Positions 13,608 to 64,000 of a DNA stretch of 64,000 bases are shown here, piece after piece. The notes under the pieces were generated by a model, which was not told where the DNA came from, ran no database searches, and saw only the letters and a program-made list of their open reading frames with translations. The stretch lies in NCBI RefSeq assembly GCF_036669915.1, contig NC_089312.1, positions 251,991 through 315,990 of the forward strand, read 5' to 3'. The stretch comes from Pocillopora verrucosa. Lineage: Eukaryota. The position numbers and the translations under genes are program-made. How positions within the stretch are numbered: position 1 is the stretch's first letter; each line of letters opens with the position of its first letter.

Positions 13608-14777
13608 TTATATCCAGGCAATCTTTGCTGTACTTTTAGCGTCTCTAACTACCTTCTTTAAATTCTCAGCATCACGCAAAGAAATATTTTTACAATGTGA
13701 AAGATTCAACTGAGAGAGGCCTTTGCATGTTTTAACAAGCAATTTTGCTGACTCTACTGATATTTTACTGCACATTGAAAGATTAACAGACCTCAAAAGT
13801 GATAAACCTGATGACTGTATAAACTGTAAAATGATTCCGTCACTCAGTTTTTCAATTCCAGATAAATCTAGCTCTTGTAATTCTGTTGACTTGGAGAAAA
13901 TGGCTAAGAGATGTTCTGTGAGTGATTTGTGATGCGAAAAATGACAGCCATGGAGGTTAAGAATAGACAACTTTGGGCAAGCTTGTGTCAAGGTTATCCA
14001 TTTGCTTTCCTCTGAAGTTGAAACACGTATGTAACTGCCAGTTACTTCAGTGCAGTCTGCCATATTTAAAGTTTGTAAGGACCTGCAGCAGACCCCAATG
14101 ATCTCAGTATCCACTCTATCCATTCCAGAAATATCCAGCACAATCAACGAATTTCCAGCTTTGACCAAGAATTGTGCAATATGGGGATGAAATTTCATTG
14201 CCTTGTTATCACCAATGTGCAGAACCTTCAGATGGGTTAGTGAAGCAATGAACTCTAAAGACATTGCTGTGAGTGAAGTACAGCAGTTAAGTGATAGCTC
14301 ACATAATAAGGGGCACCTCTTGCAGAGAACTTTCATGCATGTATCTGTGATAAATGTGTACGACAAATCCAAAGAAACAAGTTTTAGGCTTGGAGCACTT
14401 ATGTCAAATTCATCAACTGAGTTTGTCATTGCAAAAGACACCTTTTGTATTTCTTGTTGAGAGTTCAATAGTTTTTGTATTCCATAGCTGGTTACGCCAG
14501 TTGATGACAAGTTGACTTCTTTTAACCTCTGGCACTTTGGATTTTTATCATCTCCACACAAACCATCTATACCAGCATCTGTGAGAAGGGTGCATGACTC
14601 CACCCGCAATACTGTCAGCTCAGGACATGATGTTCCAAGTAAGTTTAACACTTCATCTGTACAAGCCAAACATCCACTGAGATCAATGGACTGAAGACGT
14701 GGTAAGTCTGAAGGAATCTCTTTCAATGCTTTTGCTGAGAGGCGTGAACAGTTCTTCAGACAGAGCTGTGTAATTTT
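13608..14777 (-). CDS. cysteine-containing leucine-rich-repeat protein (FBXL / AMN1-like LRR_cc family), 3'-terminal coding exon with stop
   Basis: A long open frame (372-aa ORF in the track, extended upstream in frame to the acceptor ctcttcag|AAAATTACACAG at 14778-14785 on the minus strand). It holds ~12 tandem repeats of the ...L..L.L..C..ITD.G... type, e.g. CPELTVLRVESCTLLTDAGI and CPKLSILNLHGCHF; the stop codon lies at 13608-13610. Confidence 0.8.
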   Translation of the reverse strand, partial: KITQLCLKNCSRLSAKALKEIPSDLPRLQSIDLSGCLACTDEVLNLLGTSCPELTVLRVESCTLLTDAGIDGLCGDDKNPKCQRLKEVNLSSTGVTSYGIQKLLNSQQEIQKVSFAMTNSVDEFDISAPSLKLVSLDLSYTFITDTCMKVLCKRCPLLCELSLNCCTSLTAMSLEFIASLTHLKVLHIGDNKAMKFHPHIAQFLVKAGNSLIVLDISGMDRVDTEIIGVCCRSLQTLNMADCTEVTGSYIRVSTSEESKWITLTQACPKLSILNLHGCHFSHHKSLTEHLLAIFSKSTELQELDLSGIEKLSDGIILQFIQSSGLSLLRSVNLSMCSKISVESAKLLVKTCKGLSQLNLSHCKNISLRDAENLKKVVRDAKSTAKIAWI

Positions 14778-39945: not shown

Positions 39946-40364
39946 GGGATCAAATGTGTCTCACTTGTCTGTGAGAACAATAGACTGTGGAGGGCGGCTT
40001 TGTTACCAACTTCCGCCATTCTCCGCCATACGGCATGCTTTCAATTCCTAGAATTCTATTGGCTCACAGCGGAACAAAGCGCCCCACACGCAGAATAGCC
40101 ACAAGGAAAACAGATATTGTTCCATTCGGCATTGTTCAAAGACGGCTTGGATTTCCACCATTTGTTTCTATTCCAGTGTTGAAACTTCGCCTCGGGACCA
40201 CCAAGAAGGTTCCGAGTTGAAGATTTGCGTCTGAAATTCGAGCTCGCTAGTTTGTATAACTCGCGCGTTTTGCGCCTCGTGACGTGTTTCCTATTCTATC
40301 ACGTGATTACAAGAAATGTCATTTGTGTTCCAGTGATATTGCTAGTTGTGATCAAACTCCAACA

Positions 40365-41714
40365 ATGGCTACGGTTGCGAGTGGAATGAATAACGCGATC
40401 CCAAACGGACCTGAACTTGGTGAAGTGAAAATAGAGAAAGTAGATCAGATCAAGACGAGCGATCAGAACTTCAACTGGAAAATAACGACGACGGTGCCTT
40501 CATATAACGATGCCAATTCCCTGAACACAACAACAACCGTAACAGAAAACACGTCTTCGGACAACAGTAATAATGTAGTAGTGGCAGAATGTCCTCAAAT
40601 CGATGCTGCTACTCTAAAGCTTGCTACTTTGCCAATGAAGACACAGATCATGCCTGGCCCTTACTCTGAAGTTCAGCTGCCCAAGAAGGAAAATCATGTC
40701 AAACGGCCGATGAATTCGTTCATGGTTTGGGCGCAGTCAGCGAGAAGAAAACTCGCCGAACAGTACCCGCACGTACATAATGCTGAATTAAGCAAAATGC
40801 TCGGAAAACTCTGGCGAATGCTTCCCCCTGCTGAAAAGCAACCGTACGTGGATGAGGCGGCAAGGCTAGACAAAAGACACAAAGAGGAATTTCCAGACTA
40901 TAAATATCGACCAAGAAGGAAGCAGAAACCGATGAAACGTCCGTATGTTCAAACGCGAGTTGCTGTGACACCCGGGTGGCCTGCTGGACAGGCTCAAACT
41001 CCAATCGCAATGAACGGGACGGCTACCATCGCAGCTCAAAACGGCACCTTTCCCACTACAGCCTTGACACAGAATTCCCAAGTGGCTCAGGTTTTTCCTC
41101 AAGGAATTCAGACAGTCCCAGTACAAGCAGTGAACAATGGAGGCACGGTAACGTATGCGCCAATCGGTAGTGTAGGATACGTACCAACGACTCCTATTCC
41201 GGGAGGAAGTATGATTCTACGACCAACGTTCGTTACAACTGCAGTAACGAATCCAACATCAATCCAACCTGCAGCTTCTGTAACCGTGCAGGCGGTCAGA
41301 TCTACCGTAGCAACAACTCTGGCGACTCCAAGTTATGCTATCCCGTTAACACAGTACGCTGGAGCGCCGATTATTGTTTCGAGCGGTGTCAATAACCTGG
41401 TTAACTCTACCGACAATACAAACATGGCTACAGAAAAACCTACGGAAAACGTACCTCTGGCTACCATAAGCATTCCCGCTTCAATGGCTGGGCCCATGAA
41501 CAATCATTTCGCCACTATTGCGGCTGCAGGACTTGTGGCGCCCAATTCGGATCCTGTCCAACCCAAAACCTCGGAAAGCCAACATGCGGTGGATAATAAT
41601 TCCGTTCTGACTGTTTCTGTGTCGAGAAATGGCACTGAGAACCAAGTTGATGCGTCAAACGCAGAGCATCCACAGAGTATTGAGGTGAAAACAGCTGAGG
41701 GATGTCGGATTTAA
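40365..41714 (+). CDS. SoxE-group HMG-box transcription factor (Sox8/9/10-like), apparently intronless, 449 aa
   Basis: The HMG box [76 protein letters not shown] is near-identical in pattern to vertebrate SOX9 ([43 protein letters not shown]…[28 protein letters not shown]). An N-terminal dimerisation-like region and a T/P/Q/V-rich C-terminus are present. The first in-frame ATG after the last upstream stop is 40365 (the track's 40284 start is not an ATG start), and the stop TAA is at 41712-41714. Confidence 0.85.
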
Positions 41715-46571: not shown

Positions 46572-47063
46572 TCATTTCATTTCTTGCACCTTCAAGCAAA
46601 ATGGCAATAACCCTTTCTTAGATTTTCCTCCTCGCAGACGTAGATCCAACCACTTCTGCCTGTTAGGAATTGTCTTGTCATTGAGGACATCAATGTCATA
46701 TGCATCAATATCCACCCCTGATAATGATGACAGAACTGAACTACTACTCATGGTACTAGCATTAGATTCAAATTCCCCATCATTATCTTCAACAGTTGAT
46801 TTCTTCTTCCTTGGCTGCAACATCAGCAGACCGATAGCACCATCAAGATGCCGAAACACATCTAACTTCAGGAGGTGTGACTGAATTTCAGATGAGAGGT
46901 TGCTTGAGTCAGATGCAATCCATACTTTGATGTAACCAAAATCTAAGCTAAGCTGCTGGGCACCATAAAAGCTGTGGAATTGATTTGAAAAGGAAAATAA
47001 ATTCTTCACTTGCTGACTTCTTCTGTAATCAATACCACAATTGACTGGCAACTGATTGTACAA
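46572..47063 (-). CDS. open frame with stop (163 aa: …FGYIKVWIASDSSNLSSEIQSHLLKLDVFRHLDGAIGLLMLQPRKKK…DIDAYDIDVLNDKTIPNRQKWLDLRLRGGK…), likely 3'-terminal coding exon(s) of the minus-strand gene whose large exon is at 51899-53498, or a separate small gene
   Basis: A long ORF with an acidic/serine-rich low-complexity stretch is untypical of random AT-rich sequence; no homolog was recognised and the exon boundaries are not resolved. Confidence 0.3.
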   Translation of the reverse strand: MYNQLPVNCGIDYRRSQQVKNLFSFSNQFHSFYGAQQLSLDFGYIKVWIASDSSNLSSEIQSHLLKLDVFRHLDGAIGLLMLQPRKKKSTVEDNDGEFESNASTMSSSSVLSSLSGVDIDAYDIDVLNDKTIPNRQKWLDLRLRGGKSKKGLLPFCLKVQEMK

Positions 47064-48033
47064 TGAAGGAGCTTAGACAATGAATCAAAAGAAAGCTATT
47101 AAGCCAGTTTCAAAGCTCCTAATCAGAGTATCTACTCAATAATTCCAGCCTGGGCTGTGCTTAAGGAAAATTCAACAATGATCACTGATAATTGAAAATG
47201 TTCCTCTCTTTTCCAGCTATTTTTCACTTTTGTTGTCTCACCAACTCGTCAGTTTTTGTGTTACTTCAGCCTGATCTTTCAAGCAAGGTTTAACATGAAG
47301 CCCTGTGGGGTGGGGCTGGTTGTCTTTTTCCAGAGATATCTGCATTTAAACACATTCTTTCTGAAATGCTAGTGAAAAGGCCATCATATACTACAAATTC
47401 TTACCTAAAAACAATTTCCTCTTTGAGAATGAAATCACTCCATGATTCCATCATGGTGTTGACAACAAGGGTCAGAACATTCAGTCGACTTTCAAAAGAC
47501 AAACCCATGGAGCTCTCTACAACTGGTTCCAAAATCTGAAACACTGCGTGTTCTACATATTGGCTCCGCTGATGAGGAATCCCTGATTATAAGTATTACA
47601 AAACAAGTCATAAGAGAAAATGAGATATCATCAAAATTAAGTCATGCTATTAAGTCTGGCTCTCTTGAGAACAACTGTTAGGGTTGGCTGGGTTTTCTGT
47701 ATTATGCTAGGAAAAAAGAATTTTCTTAGTTCATCTGGTTGATTAACTTTTTCAGTTGTCATCAAACCAAAATGAGACAACCAAAAAAACAACATGCATG
47801 CACATTTAATGAAGCAACCAAAATAATGCAACTTTCTCAAGACACCACTGGTGATTTCCTTCAATTCCTTTTCAAGCACTTTCTTTAAAAGATCTGAGTT
47901 GCAACTTACATGCCTATGTTTACAATACTTTTAGGGTGAGTTGATAGAGCTGGTCCTATTTCACAGATGGATTCATATGCATGCAAATCAGCAAAAAGCC
48001 ATGGGAATCACACCAAAAGACCAAAATTGACTA

Positions 48034-48544
48034 CAGTCGAACCTCGATTATCCGGACCCCAATTATCTGGACTATTCAATTATCTGGACTTTCTTCTCTG
48101 GTCCCAATTTTCCATGAATATTAATTAGTTGTGATCTTGAAAACTCAAAGTCACAAAAAGCCCAATGATTCTTTCAAAAGACTGTTGAAACAGCATATTA
48201 TCCTGTGCGCTTTTCAAAATTTGAAAGTGCGACGAGACAAAGAAATATTCTGATGCGTTTTGCGAAAATATGGTTGGCTCAATTGTTTTGTTGCCGAGGG
48301 AATTTCATGCTTGATTAGTTCCTTCCGCGTGGGTTATGTCACATGAACGATCAATAATTATTGTAAACTCAAATCAAAAACATGCCTACCAAGCAAAAGC
48401 TAGCCGTTCTATTGATTAAAGATAAGCAGATAATTATTTCATATTTCTATCTCATTAATATTCATATTTTCGATTATCTGGACTCTTGATTATCCGGACT
48501 ATTTACTGAGGTCACGATCAGTCCGGATAATCGAGGTTCGACTG
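48034..48544. mobile_element. non-autonomous Tc1/mariner-like MITE (511 bp) with perfect 24-bp terminal inverted repeats CAGTCGAACCTCGATTATCCGGAC and TA target-site duplication
   Basis: The left TIR is at 48034-48057 and its exact reverse complement GTCCGGATAATCGAGGTTCGACTG at 48521-48544, each flanked by TA (48032-33 and 48545-46). Subterminal direct/inverted copies of the ATTATC(C/T)GGAC motif lie at 48047-48095 and 48470-48532, and there is no transposase ORF. Confidence 0.8.
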
Positions 48545-48612
48545 TACTGTGTTTCCCCTGAACTTCTGAATGTGTAGAAATGTGATCACAGCTTTTACCA
48601 TGAATTAAGGCA

Positions 48613-48635
48613 AAAAAAAAAAAAAAAAAAAAAAG
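48613..48635. repeat. A(23) homopolymer ~70 bp downstream of the MITE
   Basis: Read directly. Confidence 0.9.
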
Positions 48636-51600
48636 AATAACATCAGAAAATATTCTGTTGGGAGATTTTGACCACTTCAGCCTAAACTAGTTGTGGCCTA
48701 AACAGTTAATCCCAGTGGAGGGTGATTTTAGTTTCAAATGATGGAAGTAAGGTTAGAGTTAGGGTGCCATTAATTTTACCAGAGTGGCGACTCTTCTTCC
48801 AACTCTTGCCAACAGGCATGGCCTCCTGAAAGAATTCTGTTGAAATTTTCGTCAGATCTCTTGAGAACAGAACCCATGACTTCTTCAATAAACCCTAGTG
48901 AACAGAAAAATCACAGGTTTTGCAAAGAGCACATCACAATCAAAATATATGCAACTACCAGATCTTGGCACGAAGTATAAAGAACTTATTCCCGCCAGTC
49001 TCAGAAACCACCTAGCAACTTGAAACATTTTCAAGTGAATCCATAACACCTTTGTGCAGACTTAACAAAGTACTCTAAGATGGTGGCTGAGGGCAATCAG
49101 ACACATTTGATTGCTAAGCACTATATGACAATAATAAAGAAAATGTTGAAGATGGACAACATTTATGACATTTCACATCAAGGAAATGACAAGAACTGAC
49201 CTCCAAGTTGCTTCTTTGCTCCTGTAAAAGACTGTACTGTACAGAAAGAGAGTTCCAACTGATGCTATCACTGTGAACTGCACTCAGTGACTGTACAAGG
49301 AAAAATGTCTTCTTCACTGACTGTAGAAAAAGTGGTAAGTCCCACTGCGTCAGAAGCAGAAACTGCTCAAGGGACCATAAGGATAAAAAATGATGTATTT
49401 TGGTATCAAACCAGTTAAATCCAAAGGACAGCAACGAATGAAAGCGGCACAGACTGGGAAAAACTGACAGTGTTAGAGCTCTGGCACTTCTATTGGCATG
49501 AGGTTCCAAGTGGCTAGATGATCGTTTCCAGTAACCTGCCATTTCAAAAATGCTTTCAAGTGGATCCAAGAGACTAACTATGGATTGTGCTGTCTGCGTA
49601 CCTGGGATGCTGTCTGTAAGTTCACTGTCCATGCGGCATTTGTCAGACAGACAGGAACCAAGAACACCACTGAAAGCTAATGAGAAAAAAATGCAATAAC
49701 TTCAGAACTGGTCACAGTAGAAGGCAAGGTAAGAGAAGCAATTATTTAATTAACTATCAGTTTCAAATGAAATGAAACCTAGTAATGAACAGATACAAGA
49801 ACCTTTAGGACTGTCACTAATTTAATTGTGTGGTGCAGAGTTGCACATAATATAGAAACTATTGCTACTTTTATTGAAGAGCTTTTAGGGCAATGTTTAT
49901 GTGCACACAGAGAAGATCAGCAGATCTTAATCTTACCTGAATCCCAGCTTGATGCAGAGGCCAGACAATGAAGATAGCAGCTTACAGCTTGAAGGGAACT
50001 AGTACCAGCTGGTGGCAAACAGCCTGTGAACAGAAAGGAAAAATAAAACAATTCTCCTCCTTTAAAATTTATATTTGGCTCACTACAGCCATGTGTGGAG
50101 CCATTTTATCATACATGAAACAACCAGTGAACATTATATTCAATAATTTGTACAAACATTTCAAGAAATCATTCATGAAAAGGATAGAACAGGTTATGTC
50201 ACCCACAACTATACAAGGAAAAACTTTAATCTTCAACCAGCTAACACATTAGATAAGCAGTGGACATAGTTCAACCAGGATCCACCTAGAAAAATAACTG
50301 CATTCATAATAAGCAAATTTTGCCTAGTTGCACTGTAAATCCAGCTGTTTAACAACATCTCTTAGAATTGTGATTCAACCAAAAATGAATTAATTAACAT
50401 TTTCAGCTCTACTGACAAAGCCAAAAGGCACTATGCAAATAACAAGCACAAACAACAAAAATAAATAAATCTATTGCATCAAAATCAAGGGAAGATATAA
50501 AATAAAATCTATATGAATTAAAAAATTAATTTATTATGATCATATTAAACATCAGGTCCAGCTTGCAGAAAAAGTACAAGCATGTAATTTTTCAGAAATG
50601 ACTTCAAATGAATCATGCAACTTGATAAATAAAGCATTTCTTGATAAGGATGAATCATCATATTTTTTGTGATGATATTGCAATGTAAATTAAAGGTCAT
50701 TGTTCAATATAAATAAGGACCTATCCCCTGGACTATAAAAGGTAATAATTTATTCTCATTTTGCACGAGGCAGAATTTCCTCAAATCAAACAAATTTCCG
50801 TCATTACAGCTGGTGTATCCATTAACATCTTCTCACACAAAGACGATAAATAAAAAACTTCATGTTACTTTATATTAAAATTGTAACTTAATTTACATCT
50901 GCAACTTACATTCAAAAAAAGAAATTTAATTAATCCTGAGAGAAAAAAAGAGAAGTCTAATTTCTTTCCAGCTAACAATTACTATTTAAAAATCATTCAC
51001 TTTTAAAATATTAGGTTTGCTAGTGATTGCAGTGTGACATCAGAAATGAGCTATAAATTTTTGGCATTTTAAAACCGAAGTATTGACCAATTCATAGATG
51101 TAATTCATAGAGTTTTGAAAAAAATAATAATCCATTTGTTGCAGACCAATCTTAATTACAAAAAATATGAGAGCAAAATCCTCACACTGATCAATTAAGG
51201 ATTTGACCACAAATGTAAATTTTACAAAAGCAGTGATAGCTGATGTGATAGATATCACTCAAGAACACCATATGCAGATACAACAAAATGTACATGATAG
51301 GATTTTCATTGGCATAAATGTAGATTTTAACACAATGCTTAATTAATTACTATTACATGAAGTTTTCAATGGCTTTAGACTCAGAGGGAAGGAAGTAACT
51401 AAAACTAAATTGATGTTTCCCCAAAGAAGGAAAAACAAAATATCTTGGGGGTCTCAAAAAAAGAGAAATTTATCCACTATGAGGCCAAAATTATTTCCAA
51501 GTTAAGAAAAAAGTCATCTTTACACATCCATTCCTGTTTGAGAATATGAAAGAGGAGACTGATGGGTCTGTATACAAACAGTTTTCTGAGCTTTGATCTT

Positions 51601-51898
51601 TATTCAACAGCTGGAACAATTATGCAGAAAAAGGCAAGCAAAAGGTTTGGTACATTATAATGGCTTATAAGGCATTTTACCATTTTCTACATTTATCACA
51701 CATTTGGGTATAATTGCATACATTTCAAGCAAAAATTAATAATTTCTTCATTCAAGATAACTCAACAGTTTGTATTTTCATATTCTGGATAAACTGCTAG
51801 TAAAGGAAATGTTTTCCTCCTTGTTTTTTTTCCCCTCTACTTTCTTATTCAAACCTTCCTTTACTTCTCAGATGTCCCCTGTACTCTTTCAAACTTAC

Positions 51899-53498
51899 CT
51901 GACAGACGTAGTGACTCCATCATGCGAACAACAACCATCAAAAGAAAATCAGACCATAAGAACAATGGACCCAAGGCCACATTTTGCATTAAGTTGCCTA
52001 TAGATTCTTGATTTTCTGCCATCAGTGCCACCAGCTGCTCTCCAAAACTGGCCCAAAGCATAGTGCTATAATCATAATGTAACTGCTTTGTTGTTTCAGA
52101 GTCTAAGGGTGCGTTCCACTGAACACGCTTGTTGAGTCTGGGTGATCCTGGACTTGAGCTGTGCCTGAGAATGCCATGACCCTCCTGATGGTGCAGTAAT
52201 GAACTTGTTGACCCTCCAGCCTCCTCAGCTGTTGATGTCCCCTGCAGATCAGCATCTTCACTCCTTGAACTTGAGGTCAGCTGCTCTAATGGCGGCAACT
52301 GAATCACATTTTTCCTCTCACCACTAACATGACGGCTTAAGATAAGTGTTGTTGAGGTAGCAAGTTGTGATATTAAATTACTGAAAAATTTCTGCTCCTC
52401 TGAATCAAATGAAAGCAATGGAGAGTCCGGCTCGAGTTTCAGGAGCGGGATTTGGTTGCGGCTTAACACTGACAACACTCCATTTTTGAGTGTACCTCCC
52501 TCAAGTCTTACATTCCCTCCAGTACATACCACCCCAAAGTCTTTCCATTCGAAGTTTGTAGCAAAGTCGTACTTTAACGTCCGAGTAACCTCCTGATGTT
52601 CGCTTACCAATTCATAAACGTGACCAGCCAAAATACGAGAACGTTCACAAGCAACGCCATTCAAAAGTTTGTTCAGTGACAATAAACAAACACTAGAAAC
52701 AGCTGTAGTTGAAACTGCAGTTTCTCGACCCTTCGACTGCACAAAATTTCTAATCTCGCTCACACTTAAAAGTTCTCTTTCGTCGCTCTGAAAATTTCTA
52801 GTGTACTCAAAAAGGCGATTGAAATCTTCAATTCCCTGGCAAACAGCACTTAAACCTTGCTGACTCAACCACCATTTGCATTTTTCGGCAAGGCGCAACA
52901 CGCACGATAAAATAATTGAAATGAGCGATATACTCGTATCTGCTAATTGCGAGAGCGCTTTATTCACCACTTCCAAGTCCTCCAGCATGTCTGGCACACA
53001 TTTGCGAAGCCATGGATCGGAAAAGATAAGTTTTCTTATCGCCAGTCGGTACATACATTGTGTTTTTGCTGCATGGCAAATGTCGTGAAATCTTTCAACT
53101 TTGAATGGGAACTCGCTTGGAATTGGCATTTCACCATCTAAATAGGCCATATACTTTTCCACTGTTTCTTCTAGCTCTTGTACAAACTTAGTGGAAGATT
53201 CAAGGCGTACCAGGCACTCTCTCGCCAAAACAATCTTTGAGCGATCAAGAAATTTCTGGCCGATATCGGTGAAAATCTCGCACAAAGGAACACCTTGCTC
53301 AAAATGCCCAAAGCTGCCGGGAACATGTTGAGGTTTCAAGCACGAATTTCTGGTTAAACTTACACTTTTGAACGCTTTTTTGAGAGTCCAAATGTTCTTT
53401 TTTATGTCCGTTGGGGCAATTTGAGTAACAGAGAGTCTTTGGAAAGAGTTGTTGATGCCATCGTTGCTAGCGGCTGCCGAAGACGAGCTGAAATTCAT
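51899..53498 (-). CDS. large first coding exon (533 codons) of an unidentified conserved-looking protein; continues via donor TCAG|gtaagt into downstream exons
   Basis: A 1.6-kb uninterrupted frame on the minus strand starts at an ATG (53498) and ends exactly at a consensus donor (cag|GTAAGT, minus coordinates 51898-51893). Predicted features are mixed helical and low-complexity regions and an S/T/P-rich patch (SSPGSPRLNKRVQW); no homolog could be assigned from memory. Confidence 0.6.
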
Positions 53499-56653: not shown

Positions 56654-56982
56654 TTAAGATAGTAAATTCTTTAACTACAACCAATTGCCACAATTTAAAC
56701 AAAAACTAATCAAGAAAAGATGACACAGATAAGATATTGACACAAACAAATGATTTGACTTGACTTTTCCTTTTCTACGGGTAACATTTTATTTTCATCT
56801 TTTTTTCTTTAGTTTTCTGCTGAACTTATGTCATATATGACAGGATACAGTGTTCTAATCGTTATAAACATTGACAGCACAGACTGTGTTGAAAGTTTGC
56901 CAGCATCTCTCACATAATGATATCCTAGCCTTAGCAATGACTGGTGTTCGTTACAGAATAAAAAATCCCACTTTGTTAGAAG

Positions 56983-57091
56983 TCAACATCTGATAGCTGT
57001 GCCAACAGACATGAACACTCCAAACGTTCCTCCTCCTTGAAGCATGATCTTGCCGACACTACTGACTAACTCTCTTCCTCTTAGTCCATAT
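56983..57091 (-). CDS. ROMO1: ROMO1 (reactive oxygen species modulator 1) exon 2 (…[36 protein letters not shown])
   Basis: The acceptor is ccccgccag| (minus) and the stop is TGA at 56985-56983. It matches human ROMO1 …[35 protein letters not shown]. Confidence 0.85.
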
Positions 57092-57753
57092 CTGGCGGGG
57101 AAAGAATAAGTGTCAAGTTTTCTAGCTTTCTGCAGTGTTTCTTTCACTTTTCTAGCAATCAATCTAAAGAGTGATACTCTGAGTAGGACCTCTGCTTATA
57201 AACATGATCATCTGGACAATTTCAGTTACTAAAATCTTGCTTAACAATAATCTCCTTTGTCATAAAAGTAAGATAAAAATGCTACAATGCAATTGAGCCT
57301 GCCCACTGATGTCAAAGTTTTGTTTACTGCCTAACCAGGTTGTGACCTAAGACAAAATAACTAACATTTGTACAACCCCACAAACCCTCCCCCTCCTCCT
57401 ATTTTATTGACGTCAAAATGACACATCAAATGACACATTTCGGTATTCACATATCTTCATCATTACTTTGGGAGGGGTATGGTGGTTAGCCGTTTCTTTT
57501 GATTCTATCCAGGATCTTAGGAAATTTATACATAAAACATTTCCATATAAACACTTTATCCGGAGTGCAACTGTGATGAACTTGCATCGAAAGACGACAT
57601 CTTTTTCATCTCAGTAACCGGGCTGCGATTTCCATATGAACAGATGACAATTAAGTACAAGTAAAATAGAGTGAAAGAATTCCTCTAAATCTAGGTTTAG
57701 GTACTTATAACGCTACAGGTCCAAAAGTTGTAGTAGTAATATTAGCATCTTAC

Positions 57754-57866
57754 TTGAACGCAGAATAGGTTCCAAAGAGCGCAGCAGAGCTCATTCCAAT
57801 AGCAAATCCGATCATGAAGCCAACTTTAACCCGGTCAAAACAGCTTGGCTGAGGTGCTCTTTGCAT
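57754..57866 (-). CDS. ROMO1: ROMO1 exon 1 ([37 protein letters not shown])
   Basis: The ATG is at 57866 (minus) and the donor AA|gtaaga. It matches human [43 protein letters not shown]. Confidence 0.85.
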
Positions 57867-58163
57867 ACTTATCCTCTTCTTTATTTCCTATGAGTTGCTA
57901 GTGTAAACTTGAAAGATAGAGAATGAGAACAGCAAAAACAGCCCCACATGCGAGGAGAGATGACTGCCCGTTAGCTCGTCAGAAGATTGGACATGAGCTT
58001 TCGCTAGCACGTAAGAAAGAAACCGCTGGGCATTCCATCGCGTTCGCTTTGTTCCCATTCCTTCTCGTTTTCGGCGATGATGTTTCGCTTTTCACGAGAG
58101 CTTCCGGGATTTGTGTATTTAGGAAGGCTTTTATCTTTAACTTCGCTTAGATTTTACAGGAAA
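57867..58163. promoter_or_regulatory. shared divergent promoter between ROMO1 (-) and the DUSP11-like gene (+); contains an ETS-like CTTCCGG motif (~58097-58103)
   Basis: The start codons lie 297 bp apart head-to-head. An ETS/GABP-type core is read directly, which is typical of bidirectional promoters. Confidence 0.4.
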
Positions 58164-58204
58164 ATGAATACAGAGGTAGTTATTGACAAAAGGATACCTG
58201 ATAA
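58164..58204 (+). CDS. DUSP11: DUSP11/PIR1-like RNA phosphatase exon 1 (MNTEVVIDKRIPD)
   Basis: The ATG is at 58164 and the donor AA|gtgagt. Confidence 0.7.
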
Positions 58205-58326
58205 GTGAGTATATATTTTTATTACCTCTTTATATCAAAAGGAACTTTGACCAAGTTGGTTTGTGTGGTGTTCTTCATGAGTCTTCAATCTTCCATTATA
58301 GATTGATTAAGTGTCTCCACACTTAA

Positions 58327-58482
58327 TCACCCCTGAATCAAACATAAAGTCACGAGAGTAAATGAAATGATCACCAACTGTAGCAGCTGTTGACTGTTGA
58401 TTAAATTTCCATGTCAGTACCTTAAAAAATGTGTCGAGAACAGCGTGGAGAAGATGCATACTGACGTTATGGTGTAAAAGGC
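58327..58482. mobile_element. piggyBac-like MITE copy, internally deleted (TTAA|TCACCCCTGAATCAAACATAAAGTCACGAGAGTAAATGAAATGATCACCAACTGTAGCAG … GGTGTAAAAGGC|TTAA) in DUSP11 intron 1
   Basis: TTAA is at 58323-58326 and 58483-58486, and the element shares internal blocks with the other copies. An 8-bp palindrome TTAAGTGT..ACACTTAA sits immediately 5' (58307-58326). Confidence 0.55.
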
Positions 58483-58849
58483 TTAAAGAACGTCATCAGT
58501 CATTATCATCATAAAATGGAATGGTGTTATGCCTTTCTAAAAGACATTACTATTATAAAAGATACCATAAAAACCATCTGGATATGAGAAGGAACTACTT
58601 TTTCAGTGAACTGTATCACGATTTAAGTAAGCTGGACCTGCATGCTACAAAATTGATAACTATCCACCTATGTAGAGAAAGATGTTTTTTAATCGTCTTG
58701 TCACGAGCACACTATCCTCCTATTTCTTGGATTAGTGGCATACTACAAAGGGCTGAGACTCAAAAAGGCATCTTCAGAAACTTTTGACGGTGGCCAATTT
58801 AATTTGACAGTTGCCAATTCATTTGACAAAACTAAACTATCTTGTAGTG

Positions 58850-58864
58850 CCCCCCCCCCCCCCC
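58850..58864. repeat. C(15) homopolymer in DUSP11 intron 1
   Basis: Read directly. Confidence 0.9.
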
Positions 58865-59078
58865 ACCAATGCAGCACCTCTTTTTCTTCATAATCTTACC
58901 CCCTTCTGACAAACCAAGTGGTCAAAAATGAACATATTTTTGTTCACATATAATGTTAAAAGACAGGTTTGTTTGACGTATTTTAAAAAAACCTTTTAAA
59001 ACCCCTTGAATTTGTTAGGAAATGTTAAGATTGTTTGTCAGCAATGATCAGCAATGACTTTGATTTATTTTATAACAG

Positions 59079-59154
59079 GTGGAGAGACTATAAACCATGT
59101 GGGGTACCCATACCAGGAGAGAGAATTATTGCATTTAAGACACCTTTGTCACAT
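59079..59154 (+). CDS. DUSP11: DUSP11 exon 2 (KWRDYKPCGVPIPGERIIAFKTPLSH)
   Basis: The acceptor is tttataacag| and the donor CAT|gtaagg. It matches human DUSP11 RWKDYLPVGQRMPGTRFIAFKVPLQ. Confidence 0.85.
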
Positions 59155-59321
59155 GTAAGGTGAAATAAAAACATGTTAGTGATTTCTGAAATGAAGTATC
59201 GCTCATGTTGTCAAGATATCAGTACTGAAAACAATCACCAACTGCTGTCTTTTTTAGCACTACCCTACATCTTAGAACTGACAGGGCTTTGAATTTACTT
59301 AGAAATACTATCTTGTTGCAG

Positions 59322-59371
59322 CAATATGACAATGAAAGTGATCAAGACAATGGAATCAAACCGCATGAAAG
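59322..59371 (+). CDS. DUSP11: DUSP11 exon 3 (QYDNESDQDNGIKPHE)
   Basis: The acceptor is tcttgttgcag| and the donor AAAG|gtaggt; it is phase-consistent. Confidence 0.6.
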
Positions 59372-59498
59372 GTAGGTACAGTGTTATTTACTAGACATGT
59401 GGATGCTAATTTTTTAAAATTTCTGTTCACATTTTTTCATCACACACTTTAAAAACTGCGCTTTCAATATCTTTCATCAGTTTTTAATCTTTTTTAAG

Positions 59499-59598
59499 GT
59501 TTACACCGATGGATCTGCTGAATTGCCTCAACCGAAAGCATATAAAACTTGGAATGGTTGTGGACTTCACTAACACTTACAGATATTATAATTACAGG
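59499..59598 (+). CDS. DUSP11: DUSP11 exon 4 (RFTPMDLLNCLNRKHIKLGMVVDFTNTYRYYNYR)
   Basis: The acceptor is cttttttaag| and the donor AGG|gtatgt. It matches human FSPLDLFNKIREQNEELGLIIDLTYTQRYY. Confidence 0.85.
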
Positions 59599-59808
59599 GT
59601 ATGTAGATCAAAGAATAATGTTAGCTTCTTTTTTTCATACATATTTTTCATACATTTAATACAGCAACTCTGTGGGAGGAAAAATAAGTTAAAGGTTATT
59701 GCAACGGTGTTCACATTGAAAGATCTTGAAAATTAGACAAGCTTTGTTGTTAGGCATCATGATTTCTACCAAAACAGTAATAGATTTATTGATCATATAT
59801 TGTTAAAG

Positions 59809-59888
59809 GAGCTCTCTGACCATGGCATACTTCATTGCAAGATCAAATGTGTTGGAAAAGAAATTCCAGATGAAAATGTGGTAAAAAG
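59809..59888 (+). CDS. DUSP11: DUSP11 exon 5 (ELSDHGILHCKIKCVGKEIPDENVVK)
   Basis: The acceptor is atattgttaaag| and the donor AG|gtaagg. It matches human …PYLKIFTVGHQVPDDETIFKFK. Confidence 0.8.
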
Positions 59889-59972
59889 GTAAGGAATAAT
59901 TTGAATAATGTAATTGGGATCTGGATAACCATTCTTGGTACATTTAAAAAGCAATGTTACATTCTTCCAAAG

Positions 59973-60019
59973 GTTTAAGACTGAGGTCTGCAGCTTTCTG
60001 GATAAGAGGAGTAACTCAG
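59973..60019 (+). CDS. DUSP11: DUSP11 exon 6 (RFKTEVCSFLDKRSNS)
   Basis: The acceptor is ttcttccaaag| and the donor CAG|gtgaga. Confidence 0.7.
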
Positions 60020-60104
60020 GTGAGAAACATAATGGTGCAAACAGTTTACTCCTTTAGTCTGTTGAATCCCATATGATATGTTACCATCTTTAATTTTTCT
60101 CCAG

Positions 60105-60165
60105 ATGCTGTTGTTGGGGTCCACTGTACTCATGGTCTAAACAGAAGTGGTTATGTAGTTTGTAG
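60105..60165 (+). CDS. DUSP11: DUSP11 exon 7 with the catalytic CX5R P-loop (DAVVGVHCTHGLNRSGYVVC)
   Basis: The acceptor is ttttctccag| and the donor AG|gtgaga. It is identical in pattern to human IGVHCTHGLNRTGYLICR (HCxxGxxRS/T). Confidence 0.9.
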
Positions 60166-60288
60166 GTGAGAAGAAGTGACATACAATAGTACAAAAAGTG
60201 ATTTCATTATGTGATTGGGAAATTCTATTTCAACGAAGAACAACATTTGAGTTTCAACTGATGTAATGAATCCACTTGTTCATTTTAG

Positions 60289-60335
60289 ATATCTTATTGA
60301 ATGCAGAGGATACACCCCTGAAGAGGCTATCAAAG
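60289..60335 (+). CDS. DUSP11: DUSP11 exon 8 (RYLIECRGYTPEEAIK)
   Basis: The acceptor is ttcattttag| and the donor AAAG|gtacaa. It matches human RYLIDVEGVRPDDAIE. Confidence 0.85.
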
Positions 60336-60842
60336 GTACAATAAGCTGTGAGGTCAAAGACAAAATCTTTTCAGATAACGCTACAATGAGTGTTACACAA
60401 GTTGAATAATCAGAGATTGATTCTCTTTTGCGTGACTTTGCTTTGTGATTGGTCCTGAAAACTCCCGCTACTCTCTCAACCAATCAAATTCAAAGCTAAC
60501 ACTACTACGACTTGGTCGCCCTCGTTTTCCCGCACAGTCGCCTTGTTTTACTTTGAGTTCTCATTGGCTCTCAAAGGTATTTTTCTTTCTTCTGATTGGC
60601 TGTTGTGGTTACTCTAGTTTTGGTTTTACGATACTCAATCGAAAAGCGCTCTACTGAGTAAACCTCTCATTTACCTAAAAGGAAAATAGCTATTTTCGCC
60701 GTCATCTCTTCTTTGACCAGATTGTTTCTGAAAGTAATCTGCGAACTTGCTTTTTATTTCCAACCTGTTGAGACCTACTGTTGTGATGAATGAATTTAGA
60801 ATAACACTTAGAAACTTTTTTTGTTCTTAATTACTTTTCCAG

Positions 60843-60918
60843 CATTTAATAAAGCTCGAGGACATGATATGGAGCGTGAGAATTACCTGGAGGATCTTCA
60901 TAAAAAAATCCCCGAATT
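60843..60918 (+). CDS. DUSP11: DUSP11 exon 9 (AFNKARGHDMERENYLEDLHKKIPE)
   Basis: The acceptor is ttacttttccag| and the donor TT|gtgagt. It matches human LFNRCRGHCLERQNYIEDL. If the transcript is left unspliced, an in-frame TGA follows immediately (60919-60921). Confidence 0.8.
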
Positions 60919-61050
60919 GTGAGTAAACTATTCAATTTCTTTTTACACGATTTTGTTACGCTAAGATAAATACACGTCACAAAGTAATGTATGGCAAGCC
61001 ACTTCCTGCATACCATTTAAATTTGTATGAAATTTTGTCACTTTTAATAG

Positions 61051-61612
61051 CGATTTCACGTCTTTCGTTCGTGTTGGGGATAACCGGAAACAGGACGAAA
61101 TTCAATTTGACAGACCAAGACATCTCCATACCAACTCAAGATATGCCTCAAGGAACGACGCATTTGAAGAGAACAAAACAAACTCGAGATCTTCTAACTA
61201 CATCAGGGGAAGTACAAGTGGTTACAACGACTTCAGATCGCGTTATCAACAAGTCGATCGTTATCAACCTACAGGCACCCCAACCCAACGTAGACATTAC
61301 ACGGAAAGGAGGTTTAGAAGCGAACGACACAGGGAAGATGATCATGATACTTATTCTCGCTACGATGATTCTAATAGAACTTATTATAATCCTGAACGTG
61401 ACCATCGTAATTATCCCGAAAGGAATTATAATGATCACGGTGATGGTTATTTTTATTCTGATAATTACTGTGAATATGGTAGGGAATATGAAACATATGC
61501 AAGCTCCAGTCGACCTAGAAGAAGTCGAGAGGACTCTTACAGGCGCGATCACGTAAAGAGAACTTCCTTAGTTAGGGATCGACCGAAGCCATACGCTCAG
61601 CGCAGAAAATAA
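61051..61612 (+). CDS. DUSP11: DUSP11 terminal exon encoding a ~187-aa R/D/Y/E/S-rich low-complexity tail (…RYASRNDAFEENKTNSRSSNYIRGSTSGYNDFRSRYQQVDRYQPTGTPTQRRHYTERRFRSERHREDDHDTYSRYDDSNRTYYNPERDHRNYPERNYNDHGDGYFYSDNYCEYGREYETYASSSRPRRSREDSYRRDHVKRTSLVRDRPKPYAQRRK*)
   Basis: The acceptor is cttttaatag| at 61043-61050. There is a 188-codon open frame in a frame with no ATG, so it is absent from the ORF track, which instead lists two overlapping wrong-frame ORFs (60987-61556 plus, 61148-61552 minus). The stop is TAA at 61610-61612. An arginine-rich tail is characteristic of DUSP11/PIR1. Confidence 0.65.
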
Positions 61613-62623: not shown

Positions 62624-63537
62624 TCACGTGGGGGCAAGAAATTCTGACAGTAAGCTTCCCTTCCGGGCAAGTAGAGCATTTGGACTATCCATTTCCACAA
62701 TCCTCCCTTGTTCCATAACAACAACGCGGTCGTGGTGCAGAATTGTTTCCAGTCCAATAGGTCCATACGCAACCGTGATCACTGAAGAATTGGCAAACTG
62801 GTTCTTGACAACACTATGGATTATGCGCAATGTGGTGAAGTCGACGCCTGAGACAACTCCATCAAAAATCACGATTTTCTTCTTCTGTAGTATCGCACGA
62901 GCGAGAGACAACAACAGCAGCCGAGAATTGGAGAAGTTCACAGACTGTGTCATCATGTAGTCTAGCCCCCCAGGCAGTCCTTTCACATATTCTTTCATTG
63001 TCACGGTATCCAAAACGTTCCACAACTCTTCGTCTTCATGTTTCTCTTCCGGGTCAAGGTTTTTTCGTATTGAAGCCGTAAAAATGAATGGTGTTTGCTG
63101 AAGTGTGCAGAAAGCTTTCCTCGCTTCTCGGAGATTAATCGTTGCTAGTGAAATATCATCGACCCATACCTCCTGTTGGGATCCTTTTGACAGAAGCATA
63201 AGTTTAGAAGCAAAGGAGATCGTCTTTGCGTTTTTTTGGCCTATGATACAAACTTTCTCTCTTGGCTCAATGCTTAAAGACAACGTTTCAAATGATACCC
63301 GTCGACGACCGTAGGTGTGAGACAATAAGGAATCGCTGACACACACGGCGCCCTCCTTCGGCCAATCTTCGGGTAGCTTCGTGTCATTCTGGTGACTAGA
63401 CTCGGAGCGCATGTCATGGAAACTCATCAATCGGGCCGCTGAAGTCATGTCCTGTTCTATGTTTTTGACGAGAAATGGAATAATAGCAATTCCTACAACA
63501 AGCTGTCTGACAAATGTCAACGACAGAGCGACAAAAG
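62624..63537 (-). CDS. 3'-terminal coding exon of an ABCC/MRP-type ABC transporter (end of TMD2 plus NBD2) whose NBD2 is degenerate in every catalytic motif; the gene continues beyond the window end
   Basis: It aligns collinearly with the MRP1 C-terminus (…LPEDWPKEGAV / WPQVGRVEF…; …IRKNLDPEEKHEDEELWNVLD / [21 protein letters not shown]…; GLPGGLDYMMTQ / [41 protein letters not shown] / LLRKTKILVLDEATAAVD). The motifs are altered as follows: Walker A GRTGAGKSS becomes GQKNAKTIS; the signature LSVGQ becomes FSNSR; Walker B DE becomes DG; the H-loop AHR becomes AYG. The acceptor is ttttttctttttcag|CT (minus), the stop TGA is at 62624-62626, and the 305-codon frame is uninterrupted. Confidence 0.7.
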
Positions 63538-64000
63538 CTGAAAAAGAAAAAATTCGTTCCTGGTCAGCCAGCACTATGTATGTTGGTAAATGCTTCAAAG
63601 AAGTTAGTTACTCAATACCGTACCTTCAAGCCCTAGCTGGGGTAAGCTGGTTTTGCCTCAACGATTCCCTTCAATTTTTCCCGGACAAAAACCAAAAGTA
63701 ACTTAGTCACATCTGACGAAATGTTTGCAAATAAGCTGGAGAATTAGCTACAAATGCTTCGGTTCCAGAGGAGAGGGGGGGGGCAACAGTTCTTCAGTGT
63801 AACCCCATCTAATATCTCCTTAATACCACTAAAATATTCCTGACGGAAGGCGGTCATATCTACCGGGTTCCATTAGAGTCCGTTAACTTTCAGAAGTCAA
63901 GTTGGGATGCAAGTTAAACATTCGACGTAGTCATTTAGGAGTTATTTAGTTTCATTTATCAGTCAATCATGACTTACACTTACTGTTGTTGCTTGTGAAG

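Follow-up and report, generated by a model that had tools for sequence, protein, structure and literature searches.

In exporters of the ATP-binding cassette (ABC) subfamily ABCC, nucleotide is handled at two composite sites. Site 1 combines the Walker A and Walker B motifs and the H-loop of the first nucleotide-binding domain (NBD1) with the signature motif of NBD2, and site 2 combines the Walker A and Walker B motifs and the H-loop of NBD2 with the signature motif of NBD1. Within this subfamily, the SURs are KATP channel subunits that have a TMD0-L0 region and a nucleotide-competent NBD2 that binds and hydrolyzes Mg-ATP/ADP, and CFTR, which has an R domain, depends for its gating on ATP bound at both sites and hydrolyzed at site 2. 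A review of degenerate ABC exporters treats only those in which one site is degenerate, with the consensus site supplying the power stroke (PMC7756269), and in our full-text literature searches neither a doubly degenerate ABCC protein nor the coral family reported here turned up. The subject of this analysis is an exon located toward the end of a 64,000-nucleotide stretch of the Pocillopora verrucosa genome (assembly GCF_036669915.1, contig NC_089312.1, positions 251,991 to 315,990 of the forward strand), which we refer to in full as the window. We consider it likely that this exon is the 3' end of a full-length ABC protein of scleractinian corals that derives from ABCC4/MRP4, is maintained by selection, and would be non-hydrolytic, with both of its nucleotide sites dismantled.

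The exon lies within an open reading frame (ORF) that runs from 63598 to 62624 on the minus strand. The first base of the exon, 63537, is immediately preceded by a polypyrimidine tract and AG. The exon comprises 304 codons, the first of which is split by a phase-1 intron. On the minus strand the acceptor context is ttttttctttttcag/CT... (the slash marks the junction), which corresponds to 'ct' at 63538-39 on the plus strand, and nine orthologous loci share this acceptor (polyY-CAG/C) with the window, at the identical codon. The C-terminus, which ends in FLAPT, is followed by a stop at a position common to the window exon and the orthologs. Thus the frame that the preliminary description reported as intact is indeed open over all 304 codons and is bounded by a conserved acceptor and a conserved stop.

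That description had assigned the exon to the NBD2 of an MRP-type ABCC protein, and the profile check it proposed finds the same domain: the Pfam ABC_tran family (PF00005) is recognized with an E-value of 3.3e-6 and 28.2 bits, against a gathering cut-off of 25 bits. A phmmer search of all PDB chains returned the NBD2 of ABCC4/MRP4 as the best match (E 1.8e-56, query residues 46-318), and all of the top matches are ABCC proteins, with MRP1, MRP2, SUR2, plant ABCC2, MRP5, SUR1, MRP3, YCF1, and CFTR at lower ranks. On these alignments, the exon is homologous to ABCC4 and is by descent a member of the ABCC subfamily. Upstream of the NBD, the end of transmembrane helix 12 (TM12) is the visible part of the type-I exporter transmembrane domains (TMDs), the rest of which lies beyond position 64000. 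In human MRP4, Trp995 and Arg998 of TM12 bind substrate (PMC10202912). The equivalent residues in the window are Ile (63484-63482) and Phe (63475-63473), and Ile and Phe are found in the coral family as well.

The ATP-site motifs of NBD2 are altered almost without exception (Table 1). Four motifs define a catalytically competent ABC ATPase, namely a GxxGxGK[ST] Walker A, an LSGGQ-like signature, a Walker B with its catalytic glutamate, and an H-loop histidine, and the window copy lacks each of them; we therefore do not place it with the competent ATPases. These four changes, together with the retained Q-loop glutamine, had been read from the sequence before, and each falls at the proposed place in the ABCC4 alignment. 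We also considered that an offset alignment might hide a canonical Walker A or B, and ruled this out because HMMER, MAFFT, and a 153-sequence alignment of family and canonical domains place the motifs identically. Three features come in addition to those described earlier: a three-residue insertion in the H-loop, a histidine at the A-loop position, and the replacement of Trp995 and Arg998 by Ile and Phe. The A-loop tyrosine is present in 99% of canonical ABCC domains and in 55% of the non-redundant family set. At the canonical Q-loop position, where the window has glutamine, the coral family has arginine, with a glutamine one residue earlier.

A separate feature is the sequence G-R-R-R-[VA]-S at 63293-63310 (minus strand), immediately past the former A-loop, at a place that GGPLV occupies in canonical ABCC4. 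Its first and third arginines are invariant in the family, and it matches the R-R-x-S consensus for phosphorylation by basophilic kinases. It is a speculation from the motif that this element, which sits beside the former adenine pocket, could serve as a regulatory handle.

Table 1. Features of the ABCC4-like exon and its synteny anchors; motif coordinates were checked by hand against the window sequence.
Feature	Position	Strand	Evidence
Terminal coding exon of ABCC4-like gene (end of TM12, linker, whole NBD2)	62627..63537	-	ORF, PF00005, ABCC4 NBD2 match, AF2 model
Stop codon TGA	62624..62626	-	Direct sequence reading
3' splice site: polypyrimidine tract (ttttttctttttc) plus AG	63538..63556	-	Acceptor common to orthologs
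TM12, C-terminal part	63446..63537	-	Gap-free alignment anchored on EQDM / EVENMM motif
Former A-loop position (His, 63319-63317), then basic motif GRRRVS	63293..63319	-	Alignments
Degenerate Walker A GQKNAKTIS (canonical ABCC GRTGAGKSS)	63215..63241	-	ABCC4 and family alignments
Q-loop LQQTP, Gln at canonical position	63089..63103	-	Alignments
Degenerate ABC signature FSNSR (canonical FSVGQ; family consensus FSDSQ)	62921..62935	-	ABCC4 and family alignments
Walker B IVIFDG (62875-62858; canonical IIDE to IFDG, catalytic Glu to Gly), then retained D-loop SGVD	62840..62875	-	Alignments
Degenerate H-loop TVAYGPIGL (canonical TIAH-RL): His to Tyr and 3-residue insertion, nearly invariant in family	62750..62776	-	Alignments
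Synteny anchor: dual-specificity phosphatase (DSPc) exons, convergent with ABCC exon	58079..61556	+	tblastx/blastn against orthologous loci; DSPc annotated on L001
Synteny anchor: two Romo1 exons (~56972-57093, ~57750-57887)	56972..57887	-	tblastx, 83-97% amino acid identity to L003, L004, L005; PF10247 annotated there

The degenerate motifs are not private to this copy. A search of 5.8 billion proteins recovered 38 relatives at 54-72% identity, below which identity drops to about 34% for ordinary ABCC4-like proteins. Nearly all of the relatives are exon-sized ORFs on genomic contigs; the one that bears a name comes from the scleractinian Desmophyllum pertusum and is called 'Multidrug resistance-associated protein 4'. 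In the NBD2 of the family, Walker A reads G[QE][KR][DN]A[KR][AT]SS, with a few members of the complex clade keeping K-[ST] (GEKNGKKTS), the signature reads FSDSQ, and the H-loop reads AYGPIGLET. The signature glutamine is present in 35 of the 38 relatives and is arginine in the window. The Walker B Asp-Glu pair is kept in 37 of the 38 relatives; the Asp-Gly of the window carries a glycine that is peculiar to it. Alignment with the orthologs, which the preliminary description had called for, thus shows many coral sequences with degenerate motifs.

When 1.84 billion cluster representatives were searched exhaustively with an HMMER profile, just two family clusters came out, with canonical ABCCs below them, and the best single-domain canonical matches are Nematostella vectensis ABCC4-like proteins with normal motifs. 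This ranking suggests that the degenerate sequences form an offshoot of the ABCC4-like genes that belongs to anthozoans, for the most part scleractinians. Four entries that score between the family and the canonical ABCCs (P0054-P0057) were considered as distant members and rejected; they are fused or tandem canonical models with four NBDs and summed scores. Membership of the family exon clusters reaches into the hundreds in some cases (P0223, n=584; P0227, n=733), yet none of the family proteins extends past a single exon. One family exon (L007:10001-11029, ENA ERZ25067546, P0002) has an in-frame tandem duplication of 52 codons right after the degenerate Walker A; its frame is open, and the duplication is either real or an assembly artefact.

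In the orthologs, about 500-700 bp separate the penultimate exon from the last one, so that in the window the penultimate exon would fall beyond 64000 and the terminal exon is the one exon of the gene that can be examined here; the window has no similarity to the orthologs upstream of 63571. The remainder of the gene can be read in the orthologs, where the gene spans about 6.5 kb in six exons and encodes, in Pfam order, ABC_membrane, ABC_tran, ABC_membrane, and ABC_tran. The five exons before the last one cover the N-terminus, TMD1, the end of TMD1 together with NBD1, and, in two exons, TMD2. The family protein has about 1270-1310 amino acids arranged as TMD1-NBD1-TMD2-NBD2, without TMD0. A conceptual protein of 1272 amino acids from one locus (L003) aligns with MRP4 residues 15-624 and 675-1271 (E 1e-151), and the ortholog NBD1 matches that of ABCC4 with an E-value of 5e-51. 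NBD1 is followed by a linker of about 60-80 residues that is acidic and poorly conserved.

NBD1 is degenerate as well. Among 28 family sequences, its Walker A reads GPPxAGAGTS in nearly all, with a two-residue insertion, and threonine takes the place of the lysine in every one of the 28. The signature of this domain reads L[TN]L[SG]Q and its Walker B reads LLDN, and the H-loop histidine is replaced by arginine. By these motifs, both composite sites lack key residues across the family, with the NBD2 Walker B glutamate largely kept and K-[ST] kept in the few complex-clade members noted above. The earlier suggestion that both sites would be compromised is borne out, and it now stands more firmly than the window by itself allows, because NBD1 of the orthologs is degenerate too.

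A more distant relative (L011:4690-10882, ENA ERZ25073755, P0072) is related at about 40% amino acid identity, lies in a locus with 47% GC, and has the exon layout of the family. It shares with the family the three-residue insertion in the NBD2 H-loop (MHGNVGLDTI) and the replacement of the NBD1 H-loop histidine by arginine. Both of its Walker A motifs are intact (GRTGAGKS and GRSGAGKSS), as is the NBD1 Walker B (LLDE), and its NBD2 signature and Walker B are lost. No downstream DSPc/Romo1 synteny was detected at this locus. From its motifs, L011 looks like an intermediate stage of degeneration, and this mixture suggests that the sites were dismantled stepwise.

Gene order links the window copy to the family. 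We took the DNA around eight relatives for comparison, and found by tblastx and blastn that a convergent DSPc gene and Romo1 exons lie downstream in the same order as in the window, collinear with six loci. With the acceptor and the neighbors in common, the window copy is the positional ortholog of the coral family.

Substitution patterns indicate that the family is constrained. Pairwise ratios of nonsynonymous to synonymous divergence (omega, by the Nei-Gojobori method, NG86) are 0.15-0.26 for the NBD2 exon in 21 of 21 pairs, including those with the window, and 0.15-0.40 over all exons of the orthologs. Synonymous divergence (dS) exceeds 1 between deeply diverged lineages and is saturated in the deepest comparisons. 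Codon likelihoods were obtained with our own GY94-type implementation, using nine taxa, 300 codons, and a neighbor-joining topology. For the NBD2 exon, model M0 gives an omega of 0.29, and the terminal branch leading to the window has an omega of 0.34. Likelihood-ratio tests give 0.64 for this branch against the background, which is not significant, and 26.7 against an omega of 1, which is significant. The branch is 1.12 neutral-scaled substitutions per codon long, and in simulations a neutral ORF of the exon's length stays open over it with a probability of about 0.0008; the probability is above 0.5 for about 0.02 substitutions per site or less. The family is under purifying selection, and so has been the window lineage for most of its history. 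The outcomes of two checks called for by the preliminary description, an omega below 1 in the NBD and degenerate motifs common to many coral orthologs, side with its preference for a non-hydrolytic ABC protein over a decaying pseudogene; as its second choice it had named a very recent pseudogene.

The distribution of conserved positions is consistent with loss of the ATP site in a retained fold. We aligned the family with 142 canonical ABCC NBD2 domains, in which 76 positions are at least 85% conserved. The family keeps 48 of these 76 positions, with a mean entropy of 0.25 bits; they include WP..G, RxNLDP, the L..LARA helix after the signature, the Walker B aspartate (and glutamate), the D-loop aspartate, and the core strands. 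The other 28 are changed, have a mean entropy of 0.80, and are concentrated at the ATP site. Some of the replacements are themselves invariant in the non-redundant family set, namely tyrosine for the H-loop histidine, arginine at the Q-loop glutamine, and serine for the alanine two residues past the Walker B glutamate. Of the positions that are conserved in canonical domains, the one once held by the Walker A lysine varies most in the family (2.04 bits), as would be expected if phosphate binding had been abandoned.

The NBD fold is predicted to be preserved. An AlphaFold2 (AF2) model of the window NBD, built from a 33-sequence alignment that includes canonical homologs, has a mean predicted local distance difference test score (pLDDT) of 83.7, with lower values in the A-loop/P-loop region, and superimposes on the NBD2 of ABCC4 and SUR2B with template-modeling (TM) scores of 0.84-0.85. 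An important caveat is that the model leans on the canonical sequences, since it became usable only after they were added; an 18-sequence alignment of the family alone gave an uninformative pLDDT of 40.

We propose that neither site of the coral protein would hydrolyze ATP, and that normal ATP binding is probably gone too, because the former P-loop lysine and serine are among the most variable positions of the NBD. Given the loss of hydrolysis, the NBDs would then persist as modules that remain coupled to the TMDs and have a structural, dimerizing, or regulatory part. The protein would act without an ATP-driven cycle; its most plausible roles, which we do not rank, are that of a conduit, either passive or gated, and that of a membrane subunit with a regulatory or scaffolding task. 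Its TMD pocket may have been remodeled for ligands unlike those of MRP4, because Ile and Phe stand where MRP4 has the TM12 tryptophan and arginine. Compared with the rest of the family, the window lineage would have gone one step further, through the change of the Walker B glutamate to glycine and of the signature glutamine to arginine, without losing constraint.

Several observations weigh against this interpretation. The window copy is the most divergent of the family: it departs at 37 of the 159 columns that are at least 90% conserved among its relatives, compared with 23 for its sister, and it has lost the Walker B glutamate that nearly all of them keep. An omega of about 0.3 is moderate constraint only, and the window holds the terminal exon alone, with five upstream exons beyond it. 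In D. pertusum (L001, around 10186; GCA_029204205.1, MU825880.1), an extra A in an AAAA run shifts the frame of the terminal exon; this one-nucleotide frameshift looks like a homopolymer assembly error, and because of it the annotation is split into a 972-residue model and a 254-residue model named MRP4. These split models are the sole exception to a lack of transcript-derived or full-length annotated models of the family, and neither protein collection contains a family protein that spans an exon junction, whether as a transcript-derived ORF or as a full-length model, an absence that is not calibratable and that we do not use against function. The same D. pertusum sequence has proline at the family glutamine position of the NBD2 Q-loop (ALPRE versus ALQRE) and glycine at the NBD1 Q-loop position.

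The divergence of the window copy could mean that the coral family is functional and that this one member was recently inactivated, the losses of the glutamate and glutamine being early decay in a frame that has not yet acquired a stop. Its many departures from family-conserved columns would fit such a history, as would changes at positions that are invariant in the non-redundant family set (E225G, R146Q, P197S, and T250S), upstream exons that lie out of view, and the better than 50% survival of simulated ORFs if the neutral phase was no longer than about 0.02 substitutions per site. However, omega on the window branch does not differ significantly from the background and is significantly below 1, and the acceptor, stop position, and reading frame of the exon are intact. 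Somewhat greater divergence in the window lineage is also seen in the DSPc and Romo1 exons next to the gene, which points to a rate effect on the lineage as a whole, and not to relaxation of this gene, as the main source of the long branch. Other intact orthologs, too, vary at several catalytic positions, for example at the Q-loop of D. pertusum and in P0024, which has lysine at the position of the Walker B glutamate. We therefore regard recent inactivation as unlikely. Decay of the entire lineage, as a functionless ABCC4 duplicate that erodes slowly, is strongly disfavored, and we give it very little weight. All catalytic motifs are lost, no junction-spanning proteins are found in the databases, and an omega of about 0.3 is higher than we would expect of an essential transporter. 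Against this, the frames are open, the splice sites are conserved, and every exon has an omega of 0.15-0.40 among lineages separated by a dS above 1; the family strongly conserves 48 of the 76 canonical core positions and retains synteny, and ORFs that decayed neutrally over such distances would not have survived.

A different objection is that the protein still depends on ATP, with nucleotide used through the lysine or arginine that precedes the lost Walker A lysine, the KKTS of some members, and the Walker B Asp-Glu of the family. In favor of this, 37 of the 38 family sequences have that Asp-Glu pair, K-[ST] survives in a few members of the complex clade, and basic residues flank the former P-loop (GQKDA[KR]; GRRR). 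NBD2, however, lacks two P-loop glycines, the lysine, the H-loop histidine, and the signature glycine, and NBD1 lacks its lysine, histidine, and signature and has a two-residue insertion in its P-loop. The former lysine and serine positions are highly variable, and the window copy has lost the glutamate as well. We know of no ABC ATPase that works without the Walker A lysine in either site, and continued ATP dependence seems to us improbable, more so than recent inactivation of the window copy. Taken together, these observations favor a maintained, non-hydrolytic ABC protein. For the fuller model, that of a full-length, ABCC4-derived pseudo-transporter of stony corals whose two sites were dismantled stepwise and which acts without an ATP cycle as a conduit or regulatory subunit, we see about an even chance.

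If this is correct, the coral protein would be, as far as the literature we searched shows, the first case of a eukaryotic ABC exporter that is conserved yet has no competent ATP site at all. A full-length ABCC that is under purifying selection with neither site intact, at a pairwise dS above 1, would amount to a natural experiment on the ABC scaffold without ATP, parallel to what pseudokinases are for kinases. For coral biology it raises the question of what role a conserved, coral-restricted MRP4 derivative with an altered substrate pocket plays. Judging by these motifs, the 'MRP4' annotations made automatically in cnidarian genomes would include catalytically dead proteins. At present, the ABCC4 homologs of corals are interpreted as detoxification pumps of the ordinary kind (e.g., PMC11874183); the Acropora ABCC4 gene under selection in that study, which may or may not be the coral family gene, matches human ABCC4 with a BLAST e-value of 0.

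The rest of the window holds further coding sequence. At 60987-61556, long overlapping ORFs run on both strands across a repetitive stretch rich in isoleucine, threonine, and valine, and the plus-strand frame has a weak likeness (20-38% amino acid identity) to an ortholog segment adjoining or inside the DSPc gene. A single-exon ORF of 476 amino acids at 40284-41714 (plus strand) encodes a Sox-type HMG box (PF00505, E 7e-24) and lies in the sole GC-rich block of the window (46.5% GC, 40-42 kb). At 51861-53498 (minus strand), a 545-residue ORF without a Pfam match occupies a second block of elevated GC (42%), and may be a large exon of an uncharacterized gene. A leucine-rich-repeat (F-box/LRR-like) exon lies at 13608-14726 and two CCDC142 exons at 46572-49632, all on the minus strand; by their sequences, these last fragments fit ordinary metazoan genes and are consistent with the anthozoan context.

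Comparison with described ABC proteins places the coral protein closest to ABCC4/MRP4, which it resembles most in sequence and fold in every domain and whose TMD1-NBD1-TMD2-NBD2 layout, without TMD0, it shares. MRP4, however, has a consensus, hydrolyzing site 2, whereas both coral NBDs lack the Walker A lysine, the H-loop histidine, and the signatures, and the substrate-binding residues of MRP4, Trp995 and Arg998, are Ile and Phe in the coral protein. SUR1 and SUR2 (ABCC8 and ABCC9) offer a precedent for an ABCC with a regulatory job, and the window NBD2 fits SUR2B structures as well as it fits MRP4 (TM score 0.85). The coral protein differs from them in having neither TMD0, as the ortholog starts at the equivalent of MRP4 residue 15, nor an intact site, and it is not of the SUR type. 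CFTR (ABCC7) is an ABCC whose TMDs serve as a passive conduit, and one of its sites is permanently non-catalytic; in the coral protein, by contrast, both sites are degenerate and a short acidic linker follows NBD1, which is not the CFTR arrangement.

The individual substitutions have their nearest counterparts in the exporters with a single degenerate site (ABCC1, TAP1/2, Pdr5, TM287/288, and TmrAB), in which the Walker A lysine is lost, the Walker B glutamate becomes asparagine or aspartate, the H-loop histidine becomes tyrosine, and the signature is altered. Site 1 of Pdr5 has been described with such substitutions (PMC7756269). In all of these exporters the other composite site is canonical, whereas in the coral protein both are degenerate.

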